Notes: generated by a model not told the origin, from the sequence alone. A DNA stretch of 64,000 bases from Candidatus Komeilibacteria bacterium RIFOXYD1_FULL_37_29 (GCA_001818495.1 MHKS01000005.1:323890-387889); one strand, 5' to 3'. Counted from the stretch's first letter, positions 100 through 39,329 are shown. Made by a program: numbers and translations.

Positions 100-2343
100 A
101 TGAATAACAATATAGATCGTTATATAAATAAATTTCTCAAGCTGATTATACCAATTATTTTTTTATTGCCTTTTATAGTAAGTTCAGATTATTATTTTCC
201 TTATATTACACCGAGAAATTTTTTATTTAGAATAATAGTCACTATAATTTTGGCTCTTTATTTATATTTATTTTTTAGAAATAAAGAAAAATATGGTTTT
301 GGAAAAAACAAAGTGATTTTAGCTTATTTCTTCTTGGCGATTATTTTGACGATGGCTAGTATTTTGGGTGGTGATTTTTTGTATAGTTTCTGGAGCAATT
401 ATGAAAGGATGGATGGCTTGGTCACACTTTATTATATTATTGCTTTATTTTTAGTAATTTTGGGTATCTACAGGCACCAGAAAAGCTGGTTGAATTTGTT
501 GAGATTATCCGTCTGGGCAGCTTTTATAATGGGTATTATTGCCCTAGCACAGCATTGGGATATCAATATACTTCTGGAGTCTTCTGGCGGAGATAGAGTG
601 ACTGGTACTTTGGGCAACGCTACTTATTTGGCTGTTTATAGTTTATTTAATTTATTTTTTGCTTTATATCTTTTATTTAAGTATAAAAATCATCGACCGA
701 AATTGGAATTGTGGGCTTTCTATATTTTAGATATTTTTTTAATTATATCAGAAATAGTCAATCCTGGCCGAGGATTTTTGGGGGGTATTTTTTCTGATGT
801 TAGATTGGTCTTATTGTTCATTATTCCGCAAGTATTTATAAATTTGCAGTATTATTTTTATAATATTGGCCAGACTATTCGTTATAGCTGGCCAGCTTAT
901 TTTATCTTGATAATTTTGTTAAATTTTATCGCCTTATTTAATACGCAAACTAGAGGAGTATTGGTTGGTTTGTTTATAGCCGGCGTGGTAGTAGCTATAT
1001 TTTTACTGTTTAGCCACTATGTTAGTAAAAAAGTAAAATACTTTATTGTAGTTGGTTTAACTTTGTTTATTTTATTTACCGGTAGTATTTTTGTTTTTAA
1101 AGATAGCGATTTTATACAAAATAATAGTACCCTGAGGAGAGTGGCAAATATTTCTATAACGGATGCCACTACAGAAACTAGGTTGCTCACTTGGCAGTTG
1201 AGCCTTCGGGGTTTTACGGAAAGACCGATTTTGGGTTGGGGAGTGGAAAATTTTTATTTAGTTTTTAACAAATATTTTCCTAATCAGATTTTTAAAGACG
1301 CTGGTTCAAGAGTATGGTTTGATCGGCCACACAATGTGTTTTTACAATATTTGGTTGATGGCGGTATCTTGGGGCTTTTGGCTTATCTGGCTATATTTAT
1401 TTTTGCTTTACGTAATTTTTGGAAACATTATAAAAAAACTCATGATCCAGTGACTATTAGTATTTTTGGTGGTCTTTTAATTGCTTATTTAGTACAAAAC
1501 TTTTTTGTCTTTGACAGCTTAAATTCCTATATTTTATTAGTAGTATTTTTGGCGGTCAGCATATTTTTGGCTGGCGATTTTGAAACCAATAAAAAATGGC
1601 TGACGTCTAAGTATCTAGCCATACCGTTGGCTTTATTGGTATTGATTTTTGGATTTTATTTAAATATTCCCCAATTGCAAACTAATCGTCAGTTTATTAC
1701 TCGATACACTGATTTACAAAAAGACATTGCTCAGGGTCAATATCGCCGAGCTGATTTGGATAAATTATTGGTGGTGATTGATCAGCAGTATCTTGGTAAA
1801 TTTGAATTGGCGCAGGTTTATTCTGAATTTGTACCAAATTTGGTGCGAGCTCAAATTTTGTCACCGATAGAAACCAAATATTTTATCGACACAGCGGAAG
1901 AAAAAATGCTTCAAAATATCAAAGCCCAGCCGAAAAATGTCCGTCATCATAGTTTTTTGACAAACTTATATTTTAACGCTGCTATGTTAGATCCTGTTTA
2001 TGCTCAAAAGGGCATTGATTTGATAGAAAATCAGGCCTTGGTGCTTAGTCCGACGCGGGTGCAGTTGTATTATGGTTTGGGGCAGTTCTATATAAATTTG
2101 GGAGAAAATGAGCAGGCCATGGCCAATTTTATCAAAGCCAAAGGATTGGCGCCGCGTGTTTTTGACTCCTATTATAATTTAATTATGGCGTCTTTGGCTA
2201 TGGAAGATTTGGATTTGGCCAATGCTTATTTTGAGGAAATGAAACAAAATGTTTCCGTGATAATCAAAGAGAATTATCTGAGCTTATTTATGCTGTACGA
2301 TTATTTTGGCTACAAAGATCAAGCCGCTAAATTACAACAATAA
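100..2343 (+). CDS. Polytopic membrane protein with an O-antigen ligase/Wzy_C-like domain and a C-terminal TPR-like soluble domain
   Basis: More than 10 predicted TM helices; motif GWGVENFYLVFNKYF...RPHNVFLQYLVDGGILGL resembles the O-antigen ligase family signature; C-terminal ~200 aa are helical, repeat-like and TPR-like. Confidence 0.6.
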   Translation: MNNNIDRYINKFLKLIIPIIFLLPFIVSSDYYFPYITPRNFLFRIIVTIILALYLYLFFRNKEKYGFGKNKVILAYFFLAIILTMASILGGDFLYSFWSNYERMDGLVTLYYIIALFLVILGIYRHQKSWLNLLRLSVWAAFIMGIIALAQHWDINILLESSGGDRVTGTLGNATYLAVYSLFNLFFALYLLFKYKNHRPKLELWAFYILDIFLIISEIVNPGRGFLGGIFSDVRLVLLFIIPQVFINLQYYFYNIGQTIRYSWPAYFILIILLNFIALFNTQTRGVLVGLFIAGVVVAIFLLFSHYVSKKVKYFIVVGLTLFILFTGSIFVFKDSDFIQNNSTLRRVANISITDATTETRLLTWQLSLRGFTERPILGWGVENFYLVFNKYFPNQIFKDAGSRVWFDRPHNVFLQYLVDGGILGLLAYLAIFIFALRNFWKHYKKTHDPVTISIFGGLLIAYLVQNFFVFDSLNSYILLVVFLAVSIFLAGDFETNKKWLTSKYLAIPLALLVLIFGFYLNIPQLQTNRQFITRYTDLQKDIAQGQYRRADLDKLLVVIDQQYLGKFELAQVYSEFVPNLVRAQILSPIETKYFIDTAEEKMLQNIKAQPKNVRHHSFLTNLYFNAAMLDPVYAQKGIDLIENQALVLSPTRVQLYYGLGQFYINLGENEQAMANFIKAKGLAPRVFDSYYNLIMASLAMEDLDLANAYFEEMKQNVSVIIKENYLSLFMLYDYFGYKDQAAKLQQ

Positions 2344-3601: not shown

Positions 3602-3609
3602 TTTTAGGA

Positions 3610-12116: not shown

Positions 12117-12124
12117 TTAAGTCT

Positions 12125-13126: not shown

Positions 13127-13127
13127 G

Positions 13128-13850
13128 ATGAAAGCAGTCATCATCGCCGGCGGTCAGGGAAAAAGACTCTTACCTTATACTAAAGATATTCCCAAATGTT
13201 TGGTAAAGGTTAATGATAAAGCAATTTTAGATTACCAATTGGAAGCTTTGGATTTTTGTAATATTAAAGATATAGCGATAGTCACCGGTTTTGGCGATAA
13301 ATTTGTCAGGGAGCATTTGAAAGCCAAGGGAATAAAAATTACTGTTATTGAAAATAAAAATTATCAAAATACTAATAATGCTTATGGCATTTGGTTGGCT
13401 CGTGATTATGCGTTAGATAGCCCAGATGGATTTTTATTGATAAATTCTGATTTGATTTTCCCTCCAACAATGTTGAAATTTTTAATAGAGCATTCGGAAA
13501 AAGACGCTATTATTATAGAGCCAACAACTGAGCAGAGTAGTGATATGGTCAAGGTAAAAATGGAAGGAGATAATATAGTGGCCATGAGCAAAGAAATTCC
13601 TCCTCAAGAAACAGCGGCTGAAGCAGTCGGTCCGGTAAAATTTTCTCATGATGGTGGTCAAGCTTTTATGGATTTTATTGGTAGTTTTATTGCTAAGGGA
13701 GAGTTAAATCATTGGTTTTTTTATATGTTAGGCGATTTTGCCAGACAAAGGTGGCTAGCCGGCATAAAAAATCCTGGGTTTGTCTGGACAGAAATTGATA
13801 CACCAGAAGATTTAAAGCAGGCCGAACAGATAGTTAAAAGGCTTAAGTAG
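13128..13850 (+). CDS. LicC-family sugar/head-group phosphate cytidylyltransferase (NTP_transferase fold)
   Basis: MKAVIIAGGQGKRL...PK.LV N-terminus; strong collinear resemblance to pneumococcal LicC, including the ...NYQNTNNAYGIWLARD... block. Confidence 0.6.
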   Translation: MKAVIIAGGQGKRLLPYTKDIPKCLVKVNDKAILDYQLEALDFCNIKDIAIVTGFGDKFVREHLKAKGIKITVIENKNYQNTNNAYGIWLARDYALDSPDGFLLINSDLIFPPTMLKFLIEHSEKDAIIIEPTTEQSSDMVKVKMEGDNIVAMSKEIPPQETAAEAVGPVKFSHDGGQAFMDFIGSFIAKGELNHWFFYMLGDFARQRWLAGIKNPGFVWTEIDTPEDLKQAEQIVKRLK

Positions 13851-13855
13851 CAAGT

Positions 13856-15034: not shown

Positions 15035-15036
15035 GC

Positions 15037-17139: not shown

Positions 17140-18399
17140 CTACATTTTTTTATTGACTGCTTTTTTCCAAAGGCAAGTCCTTAATATTATAGATATCAAC
17201 ATGCTGAGCAATTTTGCTATGATGATACCGAAGATACCATAGTAATAACCCAAACAGAACATTAGTACAATGAGTGAGATATTTTGTACCCAGGTGTTTT
17301 TTTGAATAATATCTATCATCTTTTGAGAACGCAAGAGAGAAGCCATAACAGATGAAATAGATTGTAGCAATATCATTATAGAAAATAGTATAGAAAAAGG
17401 CATGGATGATATATACTGCGGAACAAAATATTTAAAAAAGAAGGGGGCGAGTATTATATAAATCGCCATTAGGACTGAGCCCAAAATTGCAGTCATAATC
17501 AGTTTATGGCTTAGACTTTTGTCTAGTTCTTGGGCAGATCTTTGAGATAATTTGGGCAAAGTCAAAGGGACTATATTTTTGACTATTTGTTTTACTTGAT
17601 CAACTGGAGTAATGGCCATAAAATATATAGCCAACTGAACTGGTCCTAGGTATAAGTAGACTAGCAATTTGTCCGCTTGAGCACTAAGAGTATTGACTGA
17701 CTCGGCTATAGTCAGTGCTAGGCCGTATTTTTTTATTGGTTGATTTTTTACATTATCATCAGGAATTTCTTTGGCCGTTAGATATGATACTAAGTAGCGG
17801 GACATCAGAAGACCAACAAAATATATTAGAGTGATAATAAATATATTTTTTGTAACAAAGATAACGCCTAAGATAATTAAAGAATGAAGTATTTTTACTA
17901 TCGAATTTTTCCCAGTAATTTTTTTAAAGAGCTGTCGTCCGTTTAGGGTAGCAGAGTACAAAGTAAAGGCTTCAGCTAATGGTAGAAACATCGCCACAGC
18001 TATAAAAGCCAGAGAAAAATATAAACGGTCGTTTAAAAAATAATATAAGGCTATGCCTAAACTGATTAAGGAGGCGATTAGGCCGTATTTTATTTTATAG
18101 AGCGTTAAGTCTTTGACACTTATTTTTTCCCCTTTAGCTATAGATTGAGTAACGGCTGTATTTATTCCCGGTAGGGTAAAAATACCTATTAAAGCCGCGA
18201 CTGATAATATATATTTGTAGTCGCCATAAGTTTCTTTGGGTAGTAAATTTGCAAAAATTATAGCCAAGACAAAAGATGCGGTGGCTGATATGCCCTGTCC
18301 AACGCTTAACCAAAAACCACCCTTAGCTAGATAGACCATATCTGTTCGGGTGTATTTTTCGCTTCGGCGGAGTAGTTTATATACAAAATCTTTAAGCAT
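17140..18399 (-). CDS. Wzx-type oligosaccharide flippase (MOP/polysaccharide biosynthesis protein family)
   Basis: ~12 TM helices and a length and hydropathy pattern typical of Wzx; glycan-locus context. Confidence 0.6.
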   Translation of the reverse strand: MLKDFVYKLLRRSEKYTRTDMVYLAKGGFWLSVGQGISATASFVLAIIFANLLPKETYGDYKYILSVAALIGIFTLPGINTAVTQSIAKGEKISVKDLTLYKIKYGLIASLISLGIALYYFLNDRLYFSLAFIAVAMFLPLAEAFTLYSATLNGRQLFKKITGKNSIVKILHSLIILGVIFVTKNIFIITLIYFVGLLMSRYLVSYLTAKEIPDDNVKNQPIKKYGLALTIAESVNTLSAQADKLLVYLYLGPVQLAIYFMAITPVDQVKQIVKNIVPLTLPKLSQRSAQELDKSLSHKLIMTAILGSVLMAIYIILAPFFFKYFVPQYISSMPFSILFSIMILLQSISSVMASLLRSQKMIDIIQKNTWVQNISLIVLMFCLGYYYGIFGIIIAKLLSMLISIILRTCLWKKAVNKKM

Positions 18400-19375
18400 T
18401 TTTTTTGTAATACTCTTTGTACCAGTCTGTAAATTTTTTAATCCCTTCTTCTATGGGAGTCTTGGGCGTGAAGCCCAATTTTTTTTGGGAGTTTTTTATA
18501 TCAGCCGCAGTAGATAATATATCTCCCGGTTGCATCGGTAGTAGTTTCTTTTTGGCTTTTTGGCCGATATTTTTTTCTAGCAGAGCTATAAAATATTGCA
18601 AATTAATTGGTCGGTTATTGCCCAGATTAAATATTTCGTAGGGGTAAGAATGGTGGAGGGCTGATAAGACACCGTCGACTATGTCGTCTATGTAAGTAAA
18701 ATCCCTTTTCATTTTTCCATAGTTGAACACTTTTATAACTTGGTTTTGGGATATAGCTTTACTAAAAATTATCGGTGACATGTCTGGGCGGCTATAGGGT
18801 CCATAGACCGTGAAAAATCTAAGTCCTGTGCAGTTTATTCCAAAAAGATGATGATAAGCGTGAGCTATTAGTTCATTAGATTTTTTGGTAGCCGCATAAA
18901 GAGATATCGGCCTATCAACATTGTCTTCTACGGAGAATGGTGTTTTTTTATTTTTGCCATAAACTGAGCTAGAAGAAGCATAAATAAAATCTTTGATCTT
19001 ATGTTTTCGGACTTCTTCTATTAAATGGGAAAAGGCTATTAGATTTGATTGTATATAAGCTTGAGGATTAATTAGACTATATCTGACTCCTGGCTGAGCA
19101 GCCAAATGGCAGACTTTATCTATTTTTTCTGAATTTAAAACTTTTTTTATAAAATTTAGATTGGCCAAATCTCCTTTGCAGAATTTGTAGTTTTTATATT
19201 TTTTTAAAATATTGTTGCGATCTTTTTTAAGGTTGACATCGTAATAATTATTAAGGTTATCGATGCCGATGACTCTTACTCCCATTTCCAATAATTTTTT
19301 GGCTACATGAAAGCCGATAAAGCCGGCTGAGCCGGTAACCAATATGCTCGTGCCTTTTTTAAATTTTATATTCAT
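18392..19375 (-). CDS. NAD-dependent nucleotide-sugar epimerase/dehydratase (UDP-glucuronate 4-epimerase-like SDR)
   Basis: Rossmann motif ILVTGSAGFIGFHV; catalytic YAATKKSNE (YxxxK). Confidence 0.8.
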   Translation of the reverse strand: MNIKFKKGTSILVTGSAGFIGFHVAKKLLEMGVRVIGIDNLNNYYDVNLKKDRNNILKKYKNYKFCKGDLANLNFIKKVLNSEKIDKVCHLAAQPGVRYSLINPQAYIQSNLIAFSHLIEEVRKHKIKDFIYASSSSVYGKNKKTPFSVEDNVDRPISLYAATKKSNELIAHAYHHLFGINCTGLRFFTVYGPYSRPDMSPIIFSKAISQNQVIKVFNYGKMKRDFTYIDDIVDGVLSALHHSYPYEIFNLGNNRPINLQYFIALLEKNIGQKAKKKLLPMQPGDILSTAADIKNSQKKLGFTPKTPIEEGIKKFTDWYKEYYKKNA

Positions 19376-20736
19376 TAGCGTCCCAAAGTTTTATTAAAAA
19401 TAGTGTTGATAGTTTTGAGTATAATAGAAATGTCCAGGGCGATAGAACGATTTTTGATATAAAATAAATCGTATTGTAATTTTTCTTTAGCGTCTTCAAC
19501 ACTGGCTCCGTAGGGAAAATTTATCTGGGCCCAGCCGCTTAGTCCTGGTTTAACTAGGTGTCTTTCATTGTAAAAGGGGATTGATTGTTTGAGGGTATCT
19601 ACAAACTCGGGTCTTTCGGGACGTGGGCCGACAAAACTCATATTACCTTTTAAAATATTGATAAATTGCGGTATTTCATCGATTCTGGTTTTACGTATAA
19701 ATTTTCCAATTTTAGTAACCCGAGAGTCGTTTTCTTTAGCCCACTGGGCGCCGTTGGTTTCAGCATTGGCAGTCATGGAACGGAGTTTGTAAACAGTAAA
19801 TATTTTATTATTTAAACCCACTCTAGTTTGTTTGTAAATAAGTGGTCCTTTTGATTCCAATTTGATGGCCAGGGCTATAAAAGGGAGTATCAGTAAAGAC
19901 AGTAGACCAAAAAATGCCGACAATAATATATCGATAATCCTTTTAGTGACCGCTACCCATTGTTGATTTTTGTGCGTGATATTTTCCAAAAACCAATGGC
20001 GCTCCAAGGAACTGATTGGTACTTTGCCGGTAATTTTTTCGTAAAAATCTGTTAGATTGAAGTATTGAATTTTTAAATCTATGTTTTCAAATAAATAACG
20101 AGCTACCTCGGGGCTGTATTTTGGATCATTGACCGCTACCACAATGTTTATTTTATGCTCCAATATTTTATGGCGCATTTCACTGATATCTCGAGTAATA
20201 TCCAGTGTTTTAAATTTTTCTGGAATATCTGACAAATCAGGATTGATTATTAACTTGAGCTTGTAACCCAATTGTGGTTTGGCCAGTATTTCTTCAGCCA
20301 AAAGTAGCGATTCGCTATTTATGCCGATAATAGATAAACTATCACCCAATCTGTCACTAGAAATAAGTTTGTAGAAAATTTTTCTCCAGAGTAGGAAAAG
20401 AATGGCAAAGACAGCCACTAGTATCAGTAAGATGGTTTGCGGTCTGATGCCGGTCACAGTACCAACCAAATAAAAGAATAATATAGCCAAGAGGCCGTTG
20501 ATAAATAGATTTTGTACCAAGGCACCATAAAATTTAAAGCCTTGTTGGACTTTGTTTATTTCATATAAGCCATTTATAAAGAAAACAATAATCCAAACCG
20601 CAAAGACAATAGAAAATGGACCAAGGTGTTTAAGCCATAGTTCTTGATCAAGATAAGAAAAGCGCAGCCATAGAGTGATAGCTAGCGCACTATAAAGCAA
20701 TAGCAAATCTCCGATTAAAAGGATTATTTTCCGCAT
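19375..20736 (-). CDS. Polyprenyl-phosphate hexose-1-phosphate transferase (WbaP/CpsE-like initiating bacterial sugar transferase)
   Basis: C-terminal catalytic domain KIFTVYKLRSM...RIDEIPQFINILKGNMSFVGPRPERPEF; N-terminal TM helices. Confidence 0.8.
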   Translation of the reverse strand: MRKIILLIGDLLLLYSALAITLWLRFSYLDQELWLKHLGPFSIVFAVWIIVFFINGLYEINKVQQGFKFYGALVQNLFINGLLAILFFYLVGTVTGIRPQTILLILVAVFAILFLLWRKIFYKLISSDRLGDSLSIIGINSESLLLAEEILAKPQLGYKLKLIINPDLSDIPEKFKTLDITRDISEMRHKILEHKINIVVAVNDPKYSPEVARYLFENIDLKIQYFNLTDFYEKITGKVPISSLERHWFLENITHKNQQWVAVTKRIIDILLSAFFGLLSLLILPFIALAIKLESKGPLIYKQTRVGLNNKIFTVYKLRSMTANAETNGAQWAKENDSRVTKIGKFIRKTRIDEIPQFINILKGNMSFVGPRPERPEFVDTLKQSIPFYNERHLVKPGLSGWAQINFPYGASVEDAKEKLQYDLFYIKNRSIALDISIILKTINTIFNKTLGR

Positions 20737-20907
20737 GATATTTTTAAATAATGACTATATTATAATAAGAAATATCAGTTTTTGTCAATAAAATATGTTT
20801 GTAATCCATTATTGATGCGTGGTATAATTTAGCTGATTTTAATGCTTTTTTCTATTAGTCTATTGCTCCATTAATTATTAAAATATGGTTATTCTATAAA
20901 GGTAGCT

Positions 20908-22536
20908 ATGAAAAAAAGATATTTATTAATTTTTTCATTTATTATCGCAATTTTTGGTATTGGTTATGGATTGCCGATGCATTTTATTGGCGATGAAGAA
21001 TCTCTAATTGGTGGTGCTATAAAAATGATGGAGTTAAAAAATCTTTTTCCAGTTTTAGCTCCAGAACAACTTAAACTTTTATATTATCCGCCCATCATAC
21101 CATATTTGTATATCCTAGCATTTTTACCAGTCATTATTTTCAAATTTTTTGTTAGCGGTTTCGATTTGTTGTCTCTCAAAGACTATTTTGTCACGGATTT
21201 AGATTTACTTTGGATTAGCGCCAGATTGACCACGGCAGTTTTTTCTATCGGAATCTTAGTAATAGTCTATCAAATATCTAAAATAGTTTTTTCAAAAAAA
21301 TCTGCTTATTTATCCACGGCTTTACTCGCTTTTAGTTTTTTTCATGTGCTTTTATCTAGTGTGGCTCGTCATTGGATATTTACAGTATTTTTAGTTTACT
21401 TGATTATATTGTTAACTTTATGGTTTGTTCATGGGCATATCAAAAAATATTGGTTGATTGGTCTGGCGGTGGGCGTGGCCATGGGTACCTCTTACGTTAC
21501 ATTTTTGGTTTTACCTTTAGTAGTTTTAATTTTATGGTTTTATCGTCAGCAAATTATAAATCCAATTAAAAAAATATTAATAAATATTTCTTTAGCTTTG
21601 GCCGTTGGAGCTCCTTTGGTTTTTATAAATTTGCCAGATTTACTTCGTTTTAAGTATGGTGGTGATCTTTTGGGTGAGCCTCTTAAAAAGAGTTTTGTTG
21701 GATTTTTGTATCACCTGGTGCAAGTAGTTACTGTTTTGTTTAATCAAGAATTACTGATATTATTTTTGGCAATTTTCGCTTTGTTGTTATGGAAGCGTAA
21801 TATTAAAATTAAAATTTTTATCTCCTTTTTCATTTTTATATATTGTTTTGTTTTATACTATTTTCTTCATTTTGAGGGTAGATATATTTATTTTGTGATG
21901 CCAGCTCTGGCTATTTTGTCAGCAGATTTTTTAGTGTATTTATCTGAAAAAATACCTAATCTCAAAGTATATTATTTTTTGCTTATTTTATTATTTTTAT
22001 GGCCGGCACTGGGGATATTTCATTATAAACGTTTACTTTTGGTTGATGACACCAGAGAATTGGCTGTCCAATATATCGAACAAGAAATTTCCGATAAAGA
22101 ATTTTTGTTGTCGTCACCTCATATACGTTTGCCTAGAAGTTACGATAGTTTGACTTTGGCACAGGAGCAGGGGCATATCAATGCTACCGAAACATATATA
22201 TATAACAATTATGATCGGTTGGCTAATAATTTTGAAAAAAAATATAATTATCAAAATATACATTTTTGGAAAGAGGATTTAAAAAATCAGGCTTCGTTGG
22301 AAGAGTATATTGATAAACACGAAACTGTTTATTTTGTGTTGGAATACTGGAGTGATGATGGTTTAGAAGATTATTATAGTTATTTGCGTAAAAATGCAAA
22401 GTTAGTTAAGATATTTAGGCAATCAAATTTGGGTAGGGATTATAATGTTGCCAATGGCAATTTTTGGGCTTTTAATACAATTTTGTTTAAATTGGACAGA
22501 TTGGGCCCCAGCGTAGAAATATATCAATTAAAATAA
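20908..22536 (+). CDS. GT-C fold membrane glycosyltransferase (ArnT/PMT-like, GT39/GT83-type)
   Basis: ~11 TM N-terminal domain followed by a soluble C-terminal domain; paired with the adjacent polyprenol-phosphate-sugar synthase. Confidence 0.5.
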   Translation: MKKRYLLIFSFIIAIFGIGYGLPMHFIGDEESLIGGAIKMMELKNLFPVLAPEQLKLLYYPPIIPYLYILAFLPVIIFKFFVSGFDLLSLKDYFVTDLDLLWISARLTTAVFSIGILVIVYQISKIVFSKKSAYLSTALLAFSFFHVLLSSVARHWIFTVFLVYLIILLTLWFVHGHIKKYWLIGLAVGVAMGTSYVTFLVLPLVVLILWFYRQQIINPIKKILINISLALAVGAPLVFINLPDLLRFKYGGDLLGEPLKKSFVGFLYHLVQVVTVLFNQELLILFLAIFALLLWKRNIKIKIFISFFIFIYCFVLYYFLHFEGRYIYFVMPALAILSADFLVYLSEKIPNLKVYYFLLILLFLWPALGIFHYKRLLLVDDTRELAVQYIEQEISDKEFLLSSPHIRLPRSYDSLTLAQEQGHINATETYIYNNYDRLANNFEKKYNYQNIHFWKEDLKNQASLEEYIDKHETVYFVLEYWSDDGLEDYYSYLRKNAKLVKIFRQSNLGRDYNVANGNFWAFNTILFKLDRLGPSVEIYQLK

Positions 22537-22540
22537 ATTT

Positions 22541-23488
22541 ATGAAATTATCTATTGTTTTGCCAATTTATAATGAAGAAGAAAACCTCAGATTACTTTAT
22601 GATCAGCTTATTAGCCCTTTAAATAAATTGGGAGAAAAATATGAAATTGTTTGTGTCAATGATGGATCATCTGATAATAGTTGGGGGGTCTTAAAAGATT
22701 TGGCTAGCCAGGATAGTAATGTAAAAGTGGTTAATTTTAAAAATAATTTTGGACAAACCGCCGCTATGTCCGCCGGTATAAAATTTTCTCAGGGAGAAAT
22801 AATTATACCAATGGATGCGGATTTACAAAATGATCCGGCCGATATTTACAAATTTTTAGAAAAAATAAATGAAGGTTTTGATGTGGTGTCTGGCTGGAGA
22901 AAAAATAGACAAGATACTCTCATTAGTCGTAAACTGCCTTCTTGGATTGCCAATTGGATTATTGGTAAGATTACTGGCGTAAAAATTCATGATTACGGCT
23001 GTTCTATGAAAGCTTATAAAAGAGAAATTATAAAAGATGTTAATCTTTATGGTGAAATGCATCGTTTTATACCGGCTTATGCTTCGTGGCAAGGAGCCAA
23101 AGTTACAGAGATAGTTGTAAATCATCATCCTCGCATTCATGGGCAGACCAAATACGGCCTAGGCAGAACTTTTAAAGTCGTTTTAGATTTAATAGTTGTA
23201 AAATTTTTATCGGTTTATATGAACAGGCCGATTCACTTTTTCGGGGGTTTAGGTTTTATGTCCTTGTTTTTAGGAATAGTAATTGGTATTATGGCTGTCT
23301 TGCTTAGAATTTTTGAAATAAAATATATTGTGGAAACTCCCTTACCTACTTTGTCGGCTCTTTTGGTTATTGTCGGTGTTCAACTGATAGCCATGGGCAT
23401 TTTAGCAGAGATGATTATGCGAACTTATTATGAGTCACAGCATAAAGAACCTTATATTATAAAAGACAAAATTAATTTTACTGATTAA
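22541..23488 (+). CDS. GT2 polyprenol-phosphate sugar synthase (ArnC/GtrB/DPM1-like)
   Basis: LSIVLPIYNEEENL...VCVNDGSSDNS...DADLQNDP (DxD) plus two C-terminal TM helices, the typical GtrB/ArnC architecture. Confidence 0.7.
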   Translation: MKLSIVLPIYNEEENLRLLYDQLISPLNKLGEKYEIVCVNDGSSDNSWGVLKDLASQDSNVKVVNFKNNFGQTAAMSAGIKFSQGEIIIPMDADLQNDPADIYKFLEKINEGFDVVSGWRKNRQDTLISRKLPSWIANWIIGKITGVKIHDYGCSMKAYKREIIKDVNLYGEMHRFIPAYASWQGAKVTEIVVNHHPRIHGQTKYGLGRTFKVVLDLIVVKFLSVYMNRPIHFFGGLGFMSLFLGIVIGIMAVLLRIFEIKYIVETPLPTLSALLVIVGVQLIAMGILAEMIMRTYYESQHKEPYIIKDKINFTD

Positions 23489-25353
23489 TGTGTGGTATTG
23501 CCGGTTACCTTGGTTATGGTAATCAAAAAATATTAGAAGAAATGACAAATACTCTTTATCATCGGGGTCCCGATGATAAAGGTTTTTTACTAGACGGAAA
23601 AGTGGGATTAGGACATCGTCGTTTGTCTATTATTGACCTGAGTCACTCTGGTCATCAACCAATGTCCAATGAAGATGGATCAATCCAGATTGTTTTAAAT
23701 GGCGAGATTTATAATTACTTAGATTTAAAGAAACAGTTAAAAAATAAACACCAATTTGTTAGCCAGACTGATACAGAAATTATTATTCATTTATATGAGG
23801 AAGTCGGTGAGCGAGTATTTCAATATCTTAGTGGTATGTTTGCTCTGGCTATTTATGATAAAAACAAGCAGAAATTGATTTTGGCCAGAGACAGAATGGG
23901 TAAAAAACCTTTATATTGGGCCAAATTTGAAGATACACTGATGTTTTCTTCCGAATTAAAATCCTTGATTAAACATCCAAAATTTAAAAAAGAGCTTAAT
24001 TTAGAGGCTTTGAATAAGTATTTGCGTTATGAATATGTGCCCACCCCACATTCCATATTTAAAAATGTCTATAAATTGGAGCCTGGCCATTATTTAGAAT
24101 ATGATGGACAAAATATAAAAAAAGTAAAATTTTGGGATGTTAGTTTTCAGGCAACGGATTTGAGTTTTGATCAGGCTGTCAGTAAACTGGATGAAAAAAT
24201 CAATCAGGCTACAAAAATCAGACTAGTCAGTGATGTACCACTGGGGGTATTTCTAAGTGGTGGTATTGATAGTAGTTTGGTGACTTATTATGCACAAAAA
24301 AATAGTTTACAGAAGATAAAAACATTTTCCATTGGTTTTAAGGAAAAGAGTTTCGACGAATCAGATTATGCTAAGCAGGTAGCCGATTATTTAGGTACCG
24401 ATCATCAGCAAGCTATTTTATCAGCTCAGGATTCCTTGGAATTTATTCCGCAAATTGCCGATTTATTGGACGAACCCATGGCCGATCCGTCCATCGTGCC
24501 CACATATTTATTATCAAAATTTACCAAACAGCAGGTTACTGTAGCCTTAGGTGGAGACGGGGGAGATGAATTATTTTTAGGCTATGACACTTTTGTGGCT
24601 CAGCGTTATGCCGATATTTATGATAAAGCACCGATGTTTTTGAGAAAACTTATAGCCAAAGCTACCAGCGGCCTGCCGAGCTCTTTTAGTAATATTAGTT
24701 TGGATTTTAAAATAAAAAAATTTACCCAGGATTTTGAAGGAAATAGAATGTATCGTCATCATCGTTGGTTGGGCTCTTTTGATTATAATCAGAAAGCGAA
24801 TTTATTCACTGAGGATATTTGGCGCAATCTAAAAAATAACAACGAATTTGATGATCTTGATAATTATTTAAAAATTTTCAAGGAGAATAATTATTATAAA
24901 AAATTAATTTATTTTTATTTTAAAACTTATTTATTAGATGATATTTTAGTAAAAATAGATAGAGCTAGTATGTTTAATGCTTTGGAAGTTCGGGCTCCTT
25001 TATTGGATTATAATGTAGTGGATTTTGCTAATTCTTTGCCACTAGATTATAAATTAAAAGGTACAGAAACAAAATATATCCTTAAAAAATTGATGTCTGG
25101 TAAATTGCCAGATGATATCATTTATCGCAAAAAAAAGGGTTTTGGTATGCCCATTGCTTCTTGGTTAAGCAATGAATTAAAGCCGCTGGTGCAAACATTA
25201 TTAGCTCCAGACAAGATAAAACAAGAGGGTTTGTTTAATTATAAATATATAGAGAAATTATTAAATAATCATTTTGAAAAAAAACAAGATAATCGTAAGT
25301 TGATCTGGACGCTTCTAGTATTTGAAATGTGGAGAGAAAAATGGTTTAATTAA
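23488..25353 (+). CDS. asnB: Asparagine synthetase (glutamine-hydrolysing) family amidotransferase, probably a glycan/uronate amidating enzyme
   Basis: N-terminal MCGIAGY (Cys2 nucleophile); PP-loop SGGIDSS; start overlaps the upstream stop (TAATG) within the glycan operon. Confidence 0.8.
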   Translation: MCGIAGYLGYGNQKILEEMTNTLYHRGPDDKGFLLDGKVGLGHRRLSIIDLSHSGHQPMSNEDGSIQIVLNGEIYNYLDLKKQLKNKHQFVSQTDTEIIIHLYEEVGERVFQYLSGMFALAIYDKNKQKLILARDRMGKKPLYWAKFEDTLMFSSELKSLIKHPKFKKELNLEALNKYLRYEYVPTPHSIFKNVYKLEPGHYLEYDGQNIKKVKFWDVSFQATDLSFDQAVSKLDEKINQATKIRLVSDVPLGVFLSGGIDSSLVTYYAQKNSLQKIKTFSIGFKEKSFDESDYAKQVADYLGTDHQQAILSAQDSLEFIPQIADLLDEPMADPSIVPTYLLSKFTKQQVTVALGGDGGDELFLGYDTFVAQRYADIYDKAPMFLRKLIAKATSGLPSSFSNISLDFKIKKFTQDFEGNRMYRHHRWLGSFDYNQKANLFTEDIWRNLKNNNEFDDLDNYLKIFKENNYYKKLIYFYFKTYLLDDILVKIDRASMFNALEVRAPLLDYNVVDFANSLPLDYKLKGTETKYILKKLMSGKLPDDIIYRKKKGFGMPIASWLSNELKPLVQTLLAPDKIKQEGLFNYKYIEKLLNNHFEKKQDNRKLIWTLLVFEMWREKWFN

Positions 25354-25359
25354 CAGCAT

Positions 25360-25935
25360 ATGAATGATAGCAAAAAGTTAAATTTAGGAGCGGGTGAGGA
25401 TAGGCAAGATGGTTATATTAATATAGATTGGAATGATTTGACCAAGCCTGATATTAAACATAATTTAAATCAATTTCCTTATCCATTCCCCGATAGTCAT
25501 TTTGATGAAATATTAGCTTCACACATTTTAGAACATTTAGATAGACCATTTCAAGTGATGACGGAGTTGCACAGAATTTTAAAACCCAACGGACATTTGA
25601 TAATTAAGGTTCCGCATTTTAGTCGTGGTTTTACTCATGCTGAACATAATCATGGTTTTGATGTGTCTTTCCCCAAATATTTTGATAAGAATTTCACTAA
25701 ATCGGGTTTTTACGGTGTGGAATTTGAGTTACAAGATCTGAAATTACATTGGGCGGCTTTTAGCCATTTGCTTACTTATTATGGCTATGGAAAAGGCCTG
25801 ACGGCAGTGATAAGATTTTTGAGCTTTATATTTTCTTTTTTAGCCAACCTCAGTCCAAATTTTTGTAGCCGAGTTTGGTGTTTTTGGGTGGGAGGATTTG
25901 AAGAAATAAGATTTAAATTTATTTGTAAAAAATAA
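25360..25935 (+). CDS. Class I SAM-dependent methyltransferase (Methyltransf_11)
   Basis: LGAGEDRQDGYINID ... ILASHILEHL ... LKPNGHLIIKVP. Confidence 0.6.
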   Translation: MNDSKKLNLGAGEDRQDGYINIDWNDLTKPDIKHNLNQFPYPFPDSHFDEILASHILEHLDRPFQVMTELHRILKPNGHLIIKVPHFSRGFTHAEHNHGFDVSFPKYFDKNFTKSGFYGVEFELQDLKLHWAAFSHLLTYYGYGKGLTAVIRFLSFIFSFLANLSPNFCSRVWCFWVGGFEEIRFKFICKK

Positions 25936-25936
25936 A

Positions 25937-26701
25937 ATGTCATCTAGTGAACGTTTTGGTTATGAGTGGGATAAGTATAATAAAGTAGATCCTATTTATG
26001 CAGAACAATTTAAAAATTGGGTTTATCCTTTAAATAAGGAATTTTTTAAAGATCAGAAAGTTTTAGATGCCGGTTGTGGTATGGGACGTAATAGTTTATG
26101 GCCACTACAGTGGGGTGCCTCAGAACTTTTGGCTTTTGATTTTGATAAGCGTTCTGTTAAAGCTGCTCAAGAAAATTTAAAGAATTTTCACAACGCTAAA
26201 GTAGTTTATCAGAGTATTTATGATGTAGATTTTAGTGATTATTTTGATATAGTTTTTAGTATTGGAGTTATCCATCATCTTAAAGATCCTAAACAGGCTT
26301 TGAAAAATCTAGTTAAATCTTTGAAGCCCGATGGTACATTGTTGGTTTGGGTGTATAGTTATGAAGGTAACGAATGGCTTGTCAGAATTATTGATCCAAT
26401 TAGGAAAAATATTACCTCCAAGCTTCCTCTCAATTTGGTTCATTTCCTAAGTTATTTTTGTTCTATCCCTCTTTATATTTTTGTAAAAATATTTAAAGGA
26501 CCAAGCGGTTATTTAAAACAAATTTCTAATTTTAATTTTTGGCATATCCATAGTATAGTTTTTGATCAGCTTATTCCGGAGGTGGCTAACTATTGGAAAA
26601 AGTCCGAAGTCAATGATTTGTTTAGTGAGTTAGATTTAAAAGACCTAGATGTGCATCAACCACCGAATAAATCTGGCTGGGTTATTATCGGTAGAAAATA
26701 A
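25937..26701 (+). CDS. Class I SAM-dependent methyltransferase
   Basis: VLDAGCGMGRNS ... DIVFSIGVIHHL ... LKPDGTLLVWVY. Confidence 0.6.
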   Translation: MSSSERFGYEWDKYNKVDPIYAEQFKNWVYPLNKEFFKDQKVLDAGCGMGRNSLWPLQWGASELLAFDFDKRSVKAAQENLKNFHNAKVVYQSIYDVDFSDYFDIVFSIGVIHHLKDPKQALKNLVKSLKPDGTLLVWVYSYEGNEWLVRIIDPIRKNITSKLPLNLVHFLSYFCSIPLYIFVKIFKGPSGYLKQISNFNFWHIHSIVFDQLIPEVANYWKKSEVNDLFSELDLKDLDVHQPPNKSGWVIIGRK

Positions 26702-26757
26702 TATTTTATACTTTTTGAGTGTTGACAGAGAGCTCTGAGTCAAGGGTTCTTTTTATT

Positions 26758-26839: not shown

Positions 26840-27982
26840 GTGAAAGTATTTGAAACGAAAATTTATCTAAGGTTTTTATCTTGGTTTATTGCCGTAGCTT
26901 TTTGGCCCTTAGCAGCCTTATTTAGTCTCATATATTTTTTTGACCCCATGTTGTTTAGATCGGTATTTTCTGAATCCAGAGATACCGTTTTATTTGTCAT
27001 TTTTGTATCTTTAGCGGTAGTTTTATTACTATCTTTACTAGCTACCAGACTATTATCTCAGTCAATTACTAAACCAATTAAAATATCGGTTTTGGAGTTA
27101 TCTAAAGTAGTGGATAATCTATTCAAAACTATTCAAAATCTCTCTGAGATAACCCAAAATAATAGTAGCCTATCGCAATCTTTATTAGCGAGCAGCCAGA
27201 CGCAACAAGACGGATTAAAGACCGGTAACAAAGCTGTCCTAGATATCGCCAAATCTTTAAACGAAGTAGCTCAAAAAACCAAATCGGCCTCAGTCAAAGC
27301 TCGTAACGTTGATAAATTGGCCGGTGAAAGTGACGAGAAATCAAAAGAAGCTCTGGATAGTTTGGTGGTAGTGAAGCAGCTTTTAACCGAAAATCAAAAA
27401 TTAAGTCAAGCCTTAGATAAATATGCTAGCGATGTCAAAGATGTGGCTGGTCGGGTGGTAGCTTTGGCGGAGACAGTCAAGTTTCTTAGTTTAAATGTTT
27501 CTATTGAAGCCAGCAAAAATTCTTTTAGTGAAGATTTTTCCGAATTGGTTTCTCAAATTAGGGAGTTAAATATTGTCAGTGAACAGGCTGCTAACGCCAT
27601 TGGAGCTTTGGCCTCTAAGATGCAAAAGCAAATTGAGCAATCAAAAGACAGTTCTGATTACCAATGGAAAGAGACCACCAAAACGATTAGTGTGGTCAGT
27701 CAAACTATTATGTTTTTGGGCAAAATTGCTGAAAATATGACCCAAATATCTCAAAATGTCCAAGTAATTGATCAAGAGGCTCAAGAAACCAAAAACGATG
27801 CTCAAGACATTAGTAACATGATCAAGAAATTGAGTTCGGAAGCCAAAGCTCTAGTTGGCAATGTCGATGTAGTGATGCATACGATCAATCGGCAGGTATC
27901 TATTACCAAAGCTTTAAATGTATCTTCATCAGCCCTTAATGCCGTTACTAAAACTCTTAACGATTTAGTAGGAGAAAAATAA
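26840..27982 (+). CDS. Divergent methyl-accepting chemotaxis protein (MCP)-like transducer with two N-terminal TM helices and no periplasmic sensor domain
   Basis: GTG start per the ORF track. Two TMs separated by ~15 aa. A cytoplasmic coiled coil with LSLNVSIEASKNS...FSELVSQIRELN resembles the MCP signalling tip LALNAAIEAAR...FAVVADEVRKLA. Confidence 0.5.
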   Translation: MKVFETKIYLRFLSWFIAVAFWPLAALFSLIYFFDPMLFRSVFSESRDTVLFVIFVSLAVVLLLSLLATRLLSQSITKPIKISVLELSKVVDNLFKTIQNLSEITQNNSSLSQSLLASSQTQQDGLKTGNKAVLDIAKSLNEVAQKTKSASVKARNVDKLAGESDEKSKEALDSLVVVKQLLTENQKLSQALDKYASDVKDVAGRVVALAETVKFLSLNVSIEASKNSFSEDFSELVSQIRELNIVSEQAANAIGALASKMQKQIEQSKDSSDYQWKETTKTISVVSQTIMFLGKIAENMTQISQNVQVIDQEAQETKNDAQDISNMIKKLSSEAKALVGNVDVVMHTINRQVSITKALNVSSSALNAVTKTLNDLVGEK

Positions 27983-27983
27983 T

Positions 27984-28406
27984 ATGGCAGTCAGAACAGA
28001 AAAGTTTATATTATTTTATCTTGGTGGAGAAAAATATGCCTTACCGGCTTTATCGGCTAATCAGTTTATTGAGTTTAGTGATTTAGCTTTGGTGCCCAAG
28101 GCCGATCAGGATATCAGGGGCTTGATTTATCATAACGGCAATATTATTACTATTATTGATTTGAAGAGAGTTTTAAAGATTGTATCACCAAAACGAGAAG
28201 CTTCTCACATGTGTCTTACTTTTGAATACGGTGGGTATTATTATGGTCTATTGGTTGATCAAGGTGATGAGACTTTAGCAGTCAAAAATATTTCCAGTGA
28301 TAGACAAAGGCCAGTGTTTAAAAGATATTTTACAACGCCGGATAAAAAAAGAATTTATATTTTGGATATTGAGGAAGTATTGTCCCAAATAAATATTTAT
28401 GATTAG
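27984..28406 (+). CDS. cheW: CheW-like coupling protein
   Basis: Single CheW domain (FILFYLGGEKYALPALSANQFIEF...IRGLIYHNGNIITIIDLKRVL); good RBS GGAGAAAAA. Confidence 0.7.
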   Translation: MAVRTEKFILFYLGGEKYALPALSANQFIEFSDLALVPKADQDIRGLIYHNGNIITIIDLKRVLKIVSPKREASHMCLTFEYGGYYYGLLVDQGDETLAVKNISSDRQRPVFKRYFTTPDKKRIYILDIEEVLSQINIYD

Positions 28407-29943
28407 TGAAAAATATAAAGATTTATATTTAAGTACGACTAAACAGCAGTTGAAGAAATTGTCGGATCTGTTGTTATATTTGGAGAAAAAGCCTAGCAAT
28501 CAGAATTTGATTGAAAATATTTTTCGTTTAATCCATTCTATGAAGGGAGCGGCGGCTACGATGGGCTATAAAAAAACCGTTGATCTTTTGCATGCTATGG
28601 AATCAGTGGTAGATGGAGCTTATCACAGGGATTTGATTATAGACAGTAAAATATTAAATTTATTTTTTGATACTTTTGGTGTTTTGCAAGAAAATTTTAA
28701 AAGTATTGATAAAAGCAGTCGGGAAATAGTTTTGAATAAACCTATTTTGGCTTTAAAAAATTCATTAGGTCAAAAGCAAAAAAATAAAAAGCCAAACCAG
28801 CCCAGAGAAAAACATATCTTAGGATCTTTGCCTAGCGTAGCTGAGGTCACAATATCGACAGAAAAATTAGATGCCGTCTCTAATTCATTGGATGATCTTT
28901 TGATCAATTTTATGAAAGCGAAAAATAAGGTCAAGGATCTAGGGGATGTGGAATTTTTGAAGATATACGCTGAAAATGATCAGGTTTTGTCCAGTTTGAG
29001 ACGACAGTTGGAAAAAATCAGGATAGTTTCATTAAAAGATGTTTTATCTTCTTTGCCATATTTAGCCAAGGAAATAGCTAGAAATGAAGGGAAAAAAGTA
29101 GAAATAATTATTCGTGATCACGATTTATCTTTGGATAAAGCTATCTTGGATGAGCTCATGGAGATACTTATTCAATTGATAAAAAATGCCGTATCCCATG
29201 GTATTTCTAAGCAGCAAAGCAATGGTAAGGTAGTGATAGATTTTTCATTGTTAGATGACCGGATGCATATTTTAGTTAGTGATAATGGGCAGGGTATTAA
29301 TTGGACGGAGGTGGCTGATTTAGCAGTCAAAAATAAGCTTATCACTCGCCAAAAATTAAAAACCATGTCCCCAGAAGAAAGGAAAAAGGTTATTTTTTAT
29401 GTGGGAGTTTCCAAAGCTCAGACTCTTAGCACAGTTTCTGGAAGGGGTGTGGGTTTGAGTTTAGTCAAGAATAAAATAAGTGAATTAAACGGTTCTATCA
29501 GTGTCAGTAGTTCTTTGGGCAAGGGTACTCAGTTTGCCATTGATTTACCCCAACCCCTATCTGTTTTTCGGGGGATGATTTTTGGAGTTTTGAATTATAA
29601 TTTTGCTTTGCCGTTGGATCACATTGAAAAATTAGTATATTTGGACGAGGTAAAAAATTTTTCTAAAGCCAAGATTTTTACTTATCAGAAAAAAAAGTAT
29701 GAGGTAGTTTCTGTTTTAAATATTTTAAATATCAAAAAATTTGAGCCTCTTTATAAATATGTAGCTTTGATACATTATCAGAATAAAAAATTTGCTTTGC
29801 CAATTTTTCGGCAAGTAGAGGAAGAGGAATTGGTCATGAAAAAAATACCATTGGTTTTAAAAAATAATAAACATATCAAAGGTGTAGCCGTTTCGTCTCA
29901 GGGGCAAGTAATATTAGTTTTAAATATAAGTAGTCTAATCTAA
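28399..29943 (+). CDS. cheA: CheA-like histidine kinase (HPt P1, HATPase_c with N/G1/G2 boxes, C-terminal CheW-like P5; no P2)
   Basis: HPt motif IHSMKGAAATMGY; N-box NAVSHGI; G1 DNGQGI; G2 GRGVGLS; C-terminal CheW-like domain. Confidence 0.75.
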   Translation: MISEKYKDLYLSTTKQQLKKLSDLLLYLEKKPSNQNLIENIFRLIHSMKGAAATMGYKKTVDLLHAMESVVDGAYHRDLIIDSKILNLFFDTFGVLQENFKSIDKSSREIVLNKPILALKNSLGQKQKNKKPNQPREKHILGSLPSVAEVTISTEKLDAVSNSLDDLLINFMKAKNKVKDLGDVEFLKIYAENDQVLSSLRRQLEKIRIVSLKDVLSSLPYLAKEIARNEGKKVEIIIRDHDLSLDKAILDELMEILIQLIKNAVSHGISKQQSNGKVVIDFSLLDDRMHILVSDNGQGINWTEVADLAVKNKLITRQKLKTMSPEERKKVIFYVGVSKAQTLSTVSGRGVGLSLVKNKISELNGSISVSSSLGKGTQFAIDLPQPLSVFRGMIFGVLNYNFALPLDHIEKLVYLDEVKNFSKAKIFTYQKKKYEVVSVLNILNIKKFEPLYKYVALIHYQNKKFALPIFRQVEEEELVMKKIPLVLKNNKHIKGVAVSSQGQVILVLNISSLI

Positions 29944-29948
29944 CAATT

Positions 29949-30428
29949 ATGGGAGATAAAAAAGCAAAAATTTTATTTGTCGACGACGATAATTTTCTCC
30001 GAAAAGTCTATAAAGCAGAACTTAGTGAGCAGGGCTATGATGTTATTTTAGCGGCTGATGGCGAGGAGGGTTTGGAAAAGGCCAAAATAGCTGATCCGGA
30101 TTTAATTATCTTAGATATGATTATGCCAAAAAAGAATGGTTTCGAAGTTTTGACTGAGCTACAAAATGACCACAATACTCAAAACATACCGGTTATTATA
30201 TTATCAAACCTCGGGCAGGAAGATGACATTAAAAAGGGTTTGGATTTGGGAGCGGTTGATTATTTGGTCAAAGACAATATCACCTTAACCACCATTGTAG
30301 AAAAAGTAAGTTTATATTTAAATTCTAAGACCAGATCCAAGGTAGCTAAAATGAAAAATAATCATTCCGAAAAAAAAGAAGACCAACCGGAAGTGAAGGA
30401 TGTGGATAAATCAAACTTAGTCTACTAA
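29949..30428 (+). CDS. cheY: CheY-like single-domain response regulator with a short acidic/basic C-terminal tail
   Basis: KILFVDDDNFLRKV...DLIILDMIMPKKNGFEVL...KGLDLGAVDYLVK: receiver-domain signature residues (DD, D, T, K) all present. Confidence 0.75.
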   Translation: MGDKKAKILFVDDDNFLRKVYKAELSEQGYDVILAADGEEGLEKAKIADPDLIILDMIMPKKNGFEVLTELQNDHNTQNIPVIILSNLGQEDDIKKGLDLGAVDYLVKDNITLTTIVEKVSLYLNSKTRSKVAKMKNNHSEKKEDQPEVKDVDKSNLVY

Positions 30429-30462
30429 TTTTATGTTTTTAAAACGATAAATTTCAAATAGC

Positions 30463-32148: not shown

Positions 32149-32152
32149 AAAT

Positions 32153-34450: not shown

Positions 34451-34451
34451 A

Positions 34452-36652: not shown

Positions 36653-36656
36653 TTAA

Positions 36657-37538: not shown

Positions 37539-37572
37539 TTTTATATGGTTAATAAATTATATATTATATGCT

Positions 37573-39309: not shown

Positions 39310-39329
39310 TCGAGGGTATTGGCATTTAT

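Follow-up and report, generated by a model that had tools for sequence, protein, structure and literature searches.

We analyzed a 64,000-nucleotide stretch of DNA from Candidatus Komeilibacteria bacterium RIFOXYD1_FULL_37_29 (GCA_001818495.1 MHKS01000005.1:323890-387889), hereafter called the window, in which five open reading frames (ORFs) are tightly packed on the plus strand between positions 20908 and 26701. All five were present at the coordinates listed below. They encode a membrane protein of predicted GT-C fold, a family 2 glycosyltransferase (GT2), an asparagine synthetase (AsnB) homolog, and two methyltransferases (MT1 and MT2), with the GT-C gene ahead of that for GT2. The genes and the sites bounding them are as follows.

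20908..22536, plus strand: glycosyltransferase of predicted GT-C fold, PMT_2/GT39-like, 542 amino acids (Pfam PMT_2; AlphaFold and Foldseek)
22541..23488, plus strand: GT2, ArnC/GtrB/PgfS-like polyprenyl-phosphate glycosyltransferase, 315 amino acids (Pfam, NCBIfam, and solved structures)
23488..25353, plus strand: glutamine-dependent AsnB-family amidotransferase, 621 amino acids (GATase_7 and Asn_synthase domains, E = 2e-99)
25360..25935, plus strand: MT1, compact class I S-adenosylmethionine (SAM) methyltransferase, 191 amino acids, with a moderately hydrophobic segment at residues 146-164
25937..26701, plus strand: MT2, class I SAM methyltransferase, 254 amino acids, with a moderately hydrophobic segment at residues ~165-185
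20799..20828, plus strand: promoter-like site, sigma-70-like with an extended -10 element (TTGTAA-18-TGnTATAAT)
26727..26752, plus strand: terminator-like hairpin followed by a T-run, 3' of MT2

The stop codon of GT2 and the start codon of AsnB share one nucleotide (TAATG), and the remaining junctions in the operon are 1-6 bases. The promoter-like site lies inside a 171-bp divergent intergenic region, which is shared with a polyprenyl glycosylphosphotransferase gene and carries a perfect TTGACA-18-TATAAT on the minus strand (20788-20759). Because of the tight packing, the upstream promoter-like site, and the downstream hairpin, the five genes look like one operon. An Rfam scan of the window gave no match inside it. 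The operon forms the end of a 26-kb surface-polysaccharide cluster of the Wzx/Wzy type. The host belongs to the Patescibacteria (candidate phyla radiation, CPR), and the nearest relatives of the operon proteins were found in metagenome-assembled genomes (MAGs) of Patescibacteria and Komeilibacteria.

GT2 matched Pfam Glycos_transf_2 with E = 3.8e-34. Against NCBIfam, it aligned over its full length with the ArnC model NF007986 (211 bits, cut-off 529) and with the PgfS model (187 bits, cut-off 500). Residues 2-310 of its 315, including the C-terminal membrane helices, aligned with the solved structures of ArnC (9hwj, 180 bits) and GtrB (5ekp, 171 bits); the hydrophobic helices at residues ~237-292 constitute a transmembrane hairpin. 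As judged from its sequence, GT2 has the architecture of the polyprenyl-phosphate glycosyltransferase type.

The GT-C protein passed the Pfam PMT_2 model narrowly (28.0 bits, cut-off 26.1), and it gave no match to PF02366 in Pfam and none in NCBIfam. Some 12 hydrophobic segments were counted in it, and the C-terminal ~170 amino acids, from about residue 380 onward, make up a soluble domain. Asp29, Glu30, and Glu31 directly follow the first transmembrane segment (residues 6-24); since the N-terminus is rich in KKR and hence predicted to be inside, this DEE motif is predicted to lie on the outer face, in the first extracytoplasmic loop. When the GT-C family was used in an exhaustive profile search, 199 cluster representatives were retrieved with E ≤ 1e-30 and 7746 with E ≤ 1e-3. 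Alignment of 137 full-length relatives showed Glu30, Arg106, and Trp156 to be invariant and Asp29, Arg325, Asp381, and Arg383 to be conserved in at least 90%. When the profile of these 137 sequences was compared with the PDB sequences, the best match was ArnT (5ezm, E = 0.017), colinear over ~275 positions; a profile of 7 sequences had given no match there. The family profile also reached proteins bearing PF02366 and PF13231 at E = 1e-46 to 1e-23.

For structural comparison, an AlphaFold model made from 7 sequences was unusable (predicted local distance difference test, pLDDT, 56) and was replaced by one made from 19 sequences, including the PF02366-bearing bridge proteins, which gave a pLDDT of 73 and a predicted template modeling score (pTM) of 0.80. 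Among the top 38 PDB matches of this model in Foldseek, 36 were GT-C enzymes, namely ALG12, ALG9, AglB/STT3, ArnT, Pmt1/2/4, PglB, Emb, Aft (AftD), and PimE, and ranks 37-38 were GPI transamidase entries. The TMq values ranged from 0.28 to 0.55, with the best matches at ~0.40-0.55. A GT-C fold is thereby supported at the level of the model, in which the protein appears as a divergent member of the class; neither sequence nor fold places it closer to one of the ArnT, PMT, and ALG enzymes than to the others. Natural N-terminal fusions were observed among its relatives (P0051, P0068, P0131, P0041, P0120, and P0132); the fused parts comprise a methyltransferase of the Zn-ribbon type (P0051 and P0068), a Dpm1-like GT2 (P0131), a GT4 (P0041), and a HAD phosphatase domain. 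The fused methyltransferase domains were considered as orthologs of MT1 or MT2, but the relationship was not clear (E = 0.02 or weaker for both).

In the AsnB homolog, the glutaminase nucleophile Cys2, the equivalents of Arg49, Asn74, Gly75, Glu76, and Asp98, and the PP-loop starting at Ser267 (SGGIDS) are all intact. The top NCBIfam model was TIGR03108 (eps_aminotran_1), to which residues 1-614 aligned with positions 1-623 of 628 at 591 bits. The protein failed the E. coli-type AsnB model NF006949, with 327 bits against a cut-off of 499 and the match broken into three separate stretches, and its best match in the PDB was the hydroxyamidotransferase 7ylz (218 bits), ahead of E. coli AsnB (151 bits). 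The enzymes genetically shown to form uronamides, PGN_1234 of P. gingivalis and WbqG of E. coli O121, all belong to eps_aminotran_1, and the same role has long been proposed for WbpS of P. aeruginosa (PMC7468200). By analogy with these enzymes, the AsnB homolog would be WbpS-like and would amidate a hexuronic carboxylate. The acidic cluster of asparagine synthetase, of the SGEGSDE type, binds the amino group of aspartate (PMC6748925); it failed as a discriminator between asparagine synthetases and uronamide synthases, as it reads GGDGGDE here and SGEAADE in the hydroxyamidotransferase 7ylz. The stretch around Thr322, Thr323, and Arg325 of E. coli AsnB aligned with MADPS in the homolog. A 13-bp hairpin with a T-run was also noticed at 23553-23582, 65 nucleotides into the AsnB ORF. 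It encodes LYHRGPDDKGF, in which the HRGPD codons are intrinsically palindromic. Six orthologous loci share it without any nucleotide change, even at synonymous sites, and it is weaker in distant paralogs. This hairpin is probably imposed by the coding sequence, and it may act as an internal attenuator.

PDB searches with MT1 and MT2 returned generic class I methyltransferases only. Each of the two families keeps its moderately hydrophobic segment of 19 residues at a fixed position, which is weakly suggestive of membrane association. These results agreed with several parts of the original prediction, in which the locus had been described as an ArnC/GtrB-like GT2 with C-terminal transmembrane segments, an ArnT/PMT-type GT-C enzyme, and a glutamine-dependent AsnB homolog coupled to GT2 through TAATG: the full-length structural matches of GT2, the PMT_2, fold, and ArnT profile matches of the GT-C protein, the shared nucleotide, and the intact Cys2 and PP-loop, with the WbpS family model ranking first, all conform to it. 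Among the Pfam families that it had named, Glycos_transf_2, PMT_2 (narrowly), and Asn_synthase were matched, and PF02366 was not matched directly. A failure of the GT-C protein to match ArnT/PMT-type families, which the prediction had named as refuting it, was not observed.

Relatives of the operon were fetched through the GT-C protein, which yielded loci with 66% to ~24% GT-C identity, and the proteins of the window were searched in them by tblastn; the metagenome scan for relatives used the 7-sequence GT-C alignment. GT-C, GT2, and AsnB occurred together in loci with GT-C identities of 66%, 64%, 61%, 47-48%, 40%, 33%, and 24-33%, most of which also carried MT2 and/or MT1. The full cassette, GT-C-GT2-AsnB-MT1-MT2, was kept in L001, L002, and L024 (61-66%) and in L004 and L017 (47-48%), the latter two having changed flanks and a second AsnB paralog upstream. 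MT1 was absent from L007 and L016 (64%). The gene order was GT2-AsnB-MT2-GT-C in L018 (40%) and GT-C-GT4-GT2-SDR-AsnB-MT2 in L022 (33%), where an epimerase-like short-chain dehydrogenase/reductase (SDR) is placed between GT2 and AsnB. In L005, L008, and L013, GT2 and AsnB were adjacent and GT-C was 2-5 kb off. Wherever both were carried, MT2 adjoined AsnB or lay within ~350 bp of it, and the coupling of the GT2 stop to the AsnB start was also found in L001 and L004.

A similar arrangement was seen around AsnB orthologs (58-61% identical) of other Patescibacteria lineages, as an MT1- or MT2-like gene was located downstream in four of four loci; in L026, L028, and L029 it is the gene immediately 3' of AsnB, and in L027 a single radical SAM gene intervenes. 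GT2 was immediately 5' of AsnB in L028 and L029 and 2.4 kb 5' in L027, where a PMT_2 GT-C gene adjoins AsnB; diverged GT-C candidates were present as well. Altogether the loci carrying the module span 26% to 63% GC. The tightest unit is GT2-AsnB-methyltransferase, and GT-C is its regular partner. Since these genes recur together in many rearranged loci, the comparison provides strong evidence, at the level of sequence, that they work in one pathway. Genes for chemotaxis (Che) and pili were seen next to the module only in close relatives, with GT-C identities of at least 61% (L001, L002, and L024). Where enough flanking sequence is retained, as in L004, L007/L016, L017, and L022, the module has other neighbors, and the GT4, Wzy_C, Wzx, and phosphoglycosyltransferase (PGT) genes stay linked. 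The linkage to Wzx/Wzy/PGT/GT4 polysaccharide genes is therefore conserved much further than that to pilus genes.

The cluster to which the operon belongs contains the following genes that bear on the supply and use of its product.

18392..19375, minus strand: SDR, UDP-glucuronate 4-epimerase-like (PDB matches and active-site alignment)
17140..18399, minus strand: Wzx/MOP-family flippase (Pfam Polysacc_synt)
19375..20736, minus strand: polyprenyl glycosylphosphotransferase, starting the polysaccharide repeat unit, divergent from the operon (Bac_transf; TIGR03025 at 375 bits, above the cut-off)
100..2343, plus strand: Wzy_C (O-antigen ligase/polymerase-like) membrane protein, 747 amino acids, with a TPR tail, co-occurring with the module in distant loci

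The SDR matched 5u4q, an uncharacterized structural-genomics entry (371 bits), and then the UDP-glucuronate 4-epimerase of B. cereus, BcUGAepi (6zl6, 183 bits), which ranked above the GalE-type and WbpP-type epimerases. In the alignment with 6zl6, the equivalents of Ser/Thr126, Ser127, Ser128, Tyr149 and Lys153 (YxxxK), Thr178, and Arg185 are conserved. Arg185 of BcUGAepi holds the carboxylate of UDP-galacturonic acid (UDP-GalA), and a Ser/Thr network has been described (PMC12338863); the other residue numbers are our own reading of the alignment. It is probable, from these conserved residues, that the SDR supplies UDP-GalA, in line with the original assignment of this gene as UDP-glucuronate-epimerase-like. 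The Wzx/MOP protein may flip the repeat unit, a polyprenyl-phosphate-sugar donor, or both, as far as its family can tell.

From these data we infer a scheme for the sugar, its amidation and methylation, the stage of tailoring, the flippase, and the acceptor. The chances seem about even that the operon encodes a three-component-type extracytoplasmic system, which decorates a surface glycan with a tailored hexuronic acid, probably galacturonic acid (GalA), amidated in the manner of WbpS and methylated. An amidated and methylated hexuronic acid is proposed because of the epimerase-like SDR, the WbpS-like AsnB, and the precedent of RgtE, a bactoprenyl-phosphate-GalA synthase that works with the GalA transferases RgtD and RgtF (PMC7663294). 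In the proposed pathway, the SDR would convert UDP-glucuronic acid (UDP-GlcA) to UDP-GalA, as its homology and conserved carboxylate-binding residues indicate, and GT2 would move the sugar onto polyprenyl phosphate on the cytoplasmic side of the membrane. With glutamine and ATP, the AsnB-type enzyme would amidate the sugar at its C6 carboxylate to give a carboxamide, in the manner of WbpS, WbqG, and PGN_1234, either before or after transfer to the lipid, and MT1 and/or MT2 would methylate the same residue. The donor would be flipped, with the Wzx/MOP protein nearby as a candidate, and GT-C would pass the sugar to its acceptor by means of the conserved extracytoplasmic Asp29/Glu30 motif. The acceptor would most likely be the heteropolysaccharide built by the Wzx/Wzy system of the surrounding cluster, which is favored because its gene linkage is the conserved one; pilins are a possible acceptor.

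Several observations weigh against this scheme. The ArnC, GtrB, and PgfS references score alike against GT2, whose sequence does not reveal the transferred sugar, because every specific equivalog model falls below its cut-off. The AsnB homolog is below the TIGR03108 cut-off of 816.9 bits and passes the generic asparagine synthase model TIGR01536 (507 bits, cut-off 267), and the acidic cluster, SGEGSDE in the human and E. coli asparagine synthetases, is kept as GGDGGDE, which does not imply a loss of aspartate binding. L009-L011 keep GT-C, GT2, and MT2 (L009 also MT1 and SDR), with AsnB absent within range; amidation is therefore optional. The 64-kb window contains no UDP-glucose dehydrogenase gene and no GtrA-like flippase; a six-frame search for the latter (ORFs of 70-220 amino acids with at least three hydrophobic segments) gave spurious ORFs only. 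AsnB and the methyltransferases could, furthermore, act on other residues of the same polysaccharide.

In a rival reading, which we regard as improbable, GT2 and GT-C add a neutral side-branch sugar such as glucose (Glc) or N-acetylglucosamine (GlcNAc), and AsnB and the methyltransferases separately tailor nucleotide sugars or main-chain residues in the cytoplasm. Unrelated tailoring genes are routinely mixed in glycan clusters, the clusters of Patescibacteria hold many other methyltransferases and further AsnB paralogs, and AsnB is missing beside GT2 in L009-L011, all of which suit such a mixture. However, the adjacency of GT2 and AsnB survives rearrangements that relocate GT-C (L005, L008, L013, L028, and L029), the 1-nucleotide overlap is present in the window and closer relatives, the SDR sits between the two genes in L022, and the hydrophobic segment kept in both methyltransferase families hints at membrane association. 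Transfer of the polyprenyl-phosphate-linked sugar to Ser/Thr of type IV pilins or an S-layer protein, in the manner of PMT, PgfM, or TfpW, is also judged unlikely. The PMT_2 match, the naming of a 66%-identical relative as a GT39 family protein by NCBI, and the PMT structures among the fold matches fit protein O-glycosylation, and the pilus genes begin ~3.8 kb downstream in the window and in the closest relatives. The pilins contain 21-26% Ser plus Thr against a window mean of 12%, in line with the original suggestion to look for Ser/Thr-rich pilins, and a precedent exists in TfpW, described as a GT-C enzyme glycosylating pilins (bioRxiv 10.1101/2020.04.19.049825). Nevertheless, sequence and fold place GT-C no nearer to PMT than to ArnT or ALG enzymes, richness in Ser/Thr is common among pilins, and the Che/pilus neighbors are replaced by others at loci where the polysaccharide genes are still linked (L004, L007/L016, L017, and L022). 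Consequently, as regards the interpretation given originally, the functional coupling of GT2, AsnB, the methyltransferases, and GT-C was supported by comparative genomics, and targeting to pilins or an S-layer was only weakly so, because the pilus linkage is confined to close relatives.

A role of AsnB outside glycans, in housekeeping asparagine synthesis or in the amidation of meso-diaminopimelate of peptidoglycan precursors as by LtsA and the AsnB of Bacillus and Listeria, is the least likely of the rivals and appears very improbable, because of the synteny and the multiple paralogs within glycan clusters. It would accord with the passing of TIGR01536 and with public annotations as asparagine synthase, with the intact glutaminase residues, PP-loop, and acidic cluster, and with the existence of AsnB-type peptidoglycan amidotransferases (PMC5485061, PMC8554201, and PMC7920481). 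On the other hand, synteny with GT2 and methyltransferases in glycan clusters holds across diverged genomes, and there are several AsnB paralogs per cluster, two or three or more within the glycan clusters of L004, L017, and L005 (at least three in L005). The NF006949 score is well under its cut-off, and amino-acid biosynthesis is generally absent in Patescibacteria (PMC11665869).

Returning to the tailored hexuronic acid, we also considered where the tailoring might take place. It is conceivable that AsnB and the two putatively membrane-associated methyltransferases act on the sugar while it is on polyprenyl phosphate, since the AsnB-family enzyme LtsA acts on polyprenyl-linked substrates, namely peptidoglycan lipid intermediates (PMC7920481); the action of ArnD on Und-P-Ara4FN would be another parallel. 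Such tailoring would yield a polyprenyl-phosphate-(methyl)hexuronamide donor, with which Patescibacteria would widely neutralize and methylate their surface glycans, possibly in connection with host-cell attachment. Taken as a whole, this idea is unlikely. If correct, it would bring to light a kind of lipid-linked donor that has yet to be described.

The operon was compared with known systems. It resembles the three-component systems, namely GtrA/GtrB/GtrC of Shigella and Salmonella, GacI/GacL and CsbB/YfhO of Gram-positives, and the GT136 pentofuranose systems (PMC11127046), in having a GtrB/ArnC-type GT2 with a C-terminal transmembrane hairpin beside a GT-C enzyme inside a Wzx/Wzy locus, and in the predicted use of a polyprenyl-phosphate-monosaccharide donor outside the membrane. 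Unlike these systems, it has no GtrA-type flippase gene in the 64 kb, AsnB is translationally coupled to GT2, two methyltransferases are part of the operon, and the host is a member of the Patescibacteria, in which an outer membrane and lipopolysaccharide (LPS) are not expected. In the Rgt system (RgtE with the GalA transferases RgtA-D and RgtF of Rhizobium, Mesorhizobium, and Aquifex; PMC7663294) and the Arn pathway (ArnC, ArnD, and ArnT), an ArnC-like GT2 links a charged sugar to lipid phosphate and a GT-C of the ArnT/PMT type transfers it, as predicted here, and the locus likewise contains a UDP-GlcA 4-epimerase-like gene; the Arn pathway also tailors its sugar once on the lipid, through deformylation of Und-P-Ara4FN by ArnD. 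In contrast to both, the acceptor here cannot be lipid A, and neither the Rgt nor the Arn system includes amidation or methylation. GT2 is, furthermore, not an ArnC equivalog (211 vs 529 bits), and GT-C resembles ArnT weakly by sequence (E = 0.017).

The AsnB homolog shares with WbpS, WbqG, and PGN_1234 (TIGR03108; PMC7468200) the size of ~620 amino acids, the N-terminal Cys, the PP-loop, and the position in a surface-glycan cluster; it differs from them in being below the TIGR03108 cut-off (591 vs 817 bits) and in being paired with a polyprenyl-phosphate GT2 instead of Wbp nucleotide-sugar enzymes. PMTs and bacterial PMT-like systems (GT39; streptococcal PgfS/PgfM, PMC11092751; TfpW) have in common with the operon the PMT_2 match, which is marginal here, the acidic motif in the first external loop, and the pairing of GT-C with a polyprenyl-phosphate GT2 (187 bits with the PgfS model). 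The GT-C protein is unlike PMT systems in having no MIR domain, and its linkage to pilin genes is not conserved.

Each of the parts is thus a member of a known family, and in its general logic the operon follows the Gtr, Arn, and Rgt systems. What distinguishes the operon is the conserved and partly translationally coupled pairing of GT2 with AsnB and methyltransferases, the absence of a GtrA-type flippase, and the host phylum. No description of a GT2-AsnB-MT-GT-C module was found in the open-access literature searched. Patescibacteria are ultrasmall, and their cultivated members live attached to other microbes; to our knowledge, almost nothing is known of their cell-surface chemistry. With a conserved module of GT2, AsnB, methyltransferase, and GT-C defined, there are specific candidates to express in heterologous hosts and to guide the analysis of glycans in those few representatives that can be cultivated. 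If tailoring does occur on the lipid carrier, the module would add a new donor type to the three-component scheme and provide candidate enzymes for glycoengineering; if it does not, the operon would be an ordinary, well-delimited surface-polysaccharide operon.

The glycan genes elsewhere in the 26-kb cluster comprise the Wzy_C-TPR membrane protein, five GT4 genes, two further methyltransferases, the Wzx-like flippase, the SDR, and the initiating phosphoglycosyltransferase, together with a TagF-like glycerophosphotransferase, a 2-hydroxyacid dehydrogenase, a nucleotidyltransferase, and a 698-amino-acid class V aminotransferase fusion. The Wzy_C-TPR gene (100-2343) and the adjacent divergent GT4 gene (2375-3703, minus strand) travel with GT-C, GT2, and MT2 in the distant loci L009-L011 and L017; the Wzy_C-TPR protein could be a polymerase, a ligase, or a PglL-like O-oligosaccharyltransferase. 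A set of Wzy_C-TPR, GT4, GT-C, GT2, and MT2 was also seen in L008-L011, which are four third-party annotation (TPA) MAG contigs of 44-49% GC (one of 633 kb) labeled as uncultured Gammaproteobacteria; either these labels cannot be relied upon or the module has been transferred from one phylum to another. The sub-cluster at 10878-17133 consists of the TagF-like glycerophosphotransferase, the 2-hydroxyacid dehydrogenase, the nucleotidyltransferase, a 392-amino-acid protein with no Pfam match, and the 698-amino-acid protein, whose C-terminal residues 421-682 form the class V aminotransferase. This sub-cluster is syntenic in L001. Judging by its content, the same glycan may bear a polyol- or aminoalcohol-phosphate substituent derived from a nucleotide-activated form. 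In the glycan clusters around the AsnB orthologs (L005 and L026-L029), up to at least eight methyltransferase genes within ~18 kb and B12-binding radical SAM genes were observed, which implies, as far as gene content can indicate, that these Patescibacteria glycans are heavily methylated and amidated.

On the 3' side of the operon, an MCP-CheW-CheA-CheY set is followed by a type IV pilus cluster. In this region (26840-39894), the set lies directly 5' of PilB, PilC, four prepilin-like genes, and a PilM-like gene, an arrangement that looks like chemosensory control of type IV pili. Two tRNA genes (50210-50282 and 50505-50575), the sole Rfam matches in the window, lie 3' of the dnaK-dnaJ region. 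Within the pilus cluster, one prepilin carries a lectin-like Laminin_G_3 domain, and another protein carries a Fib_succ_major domain.

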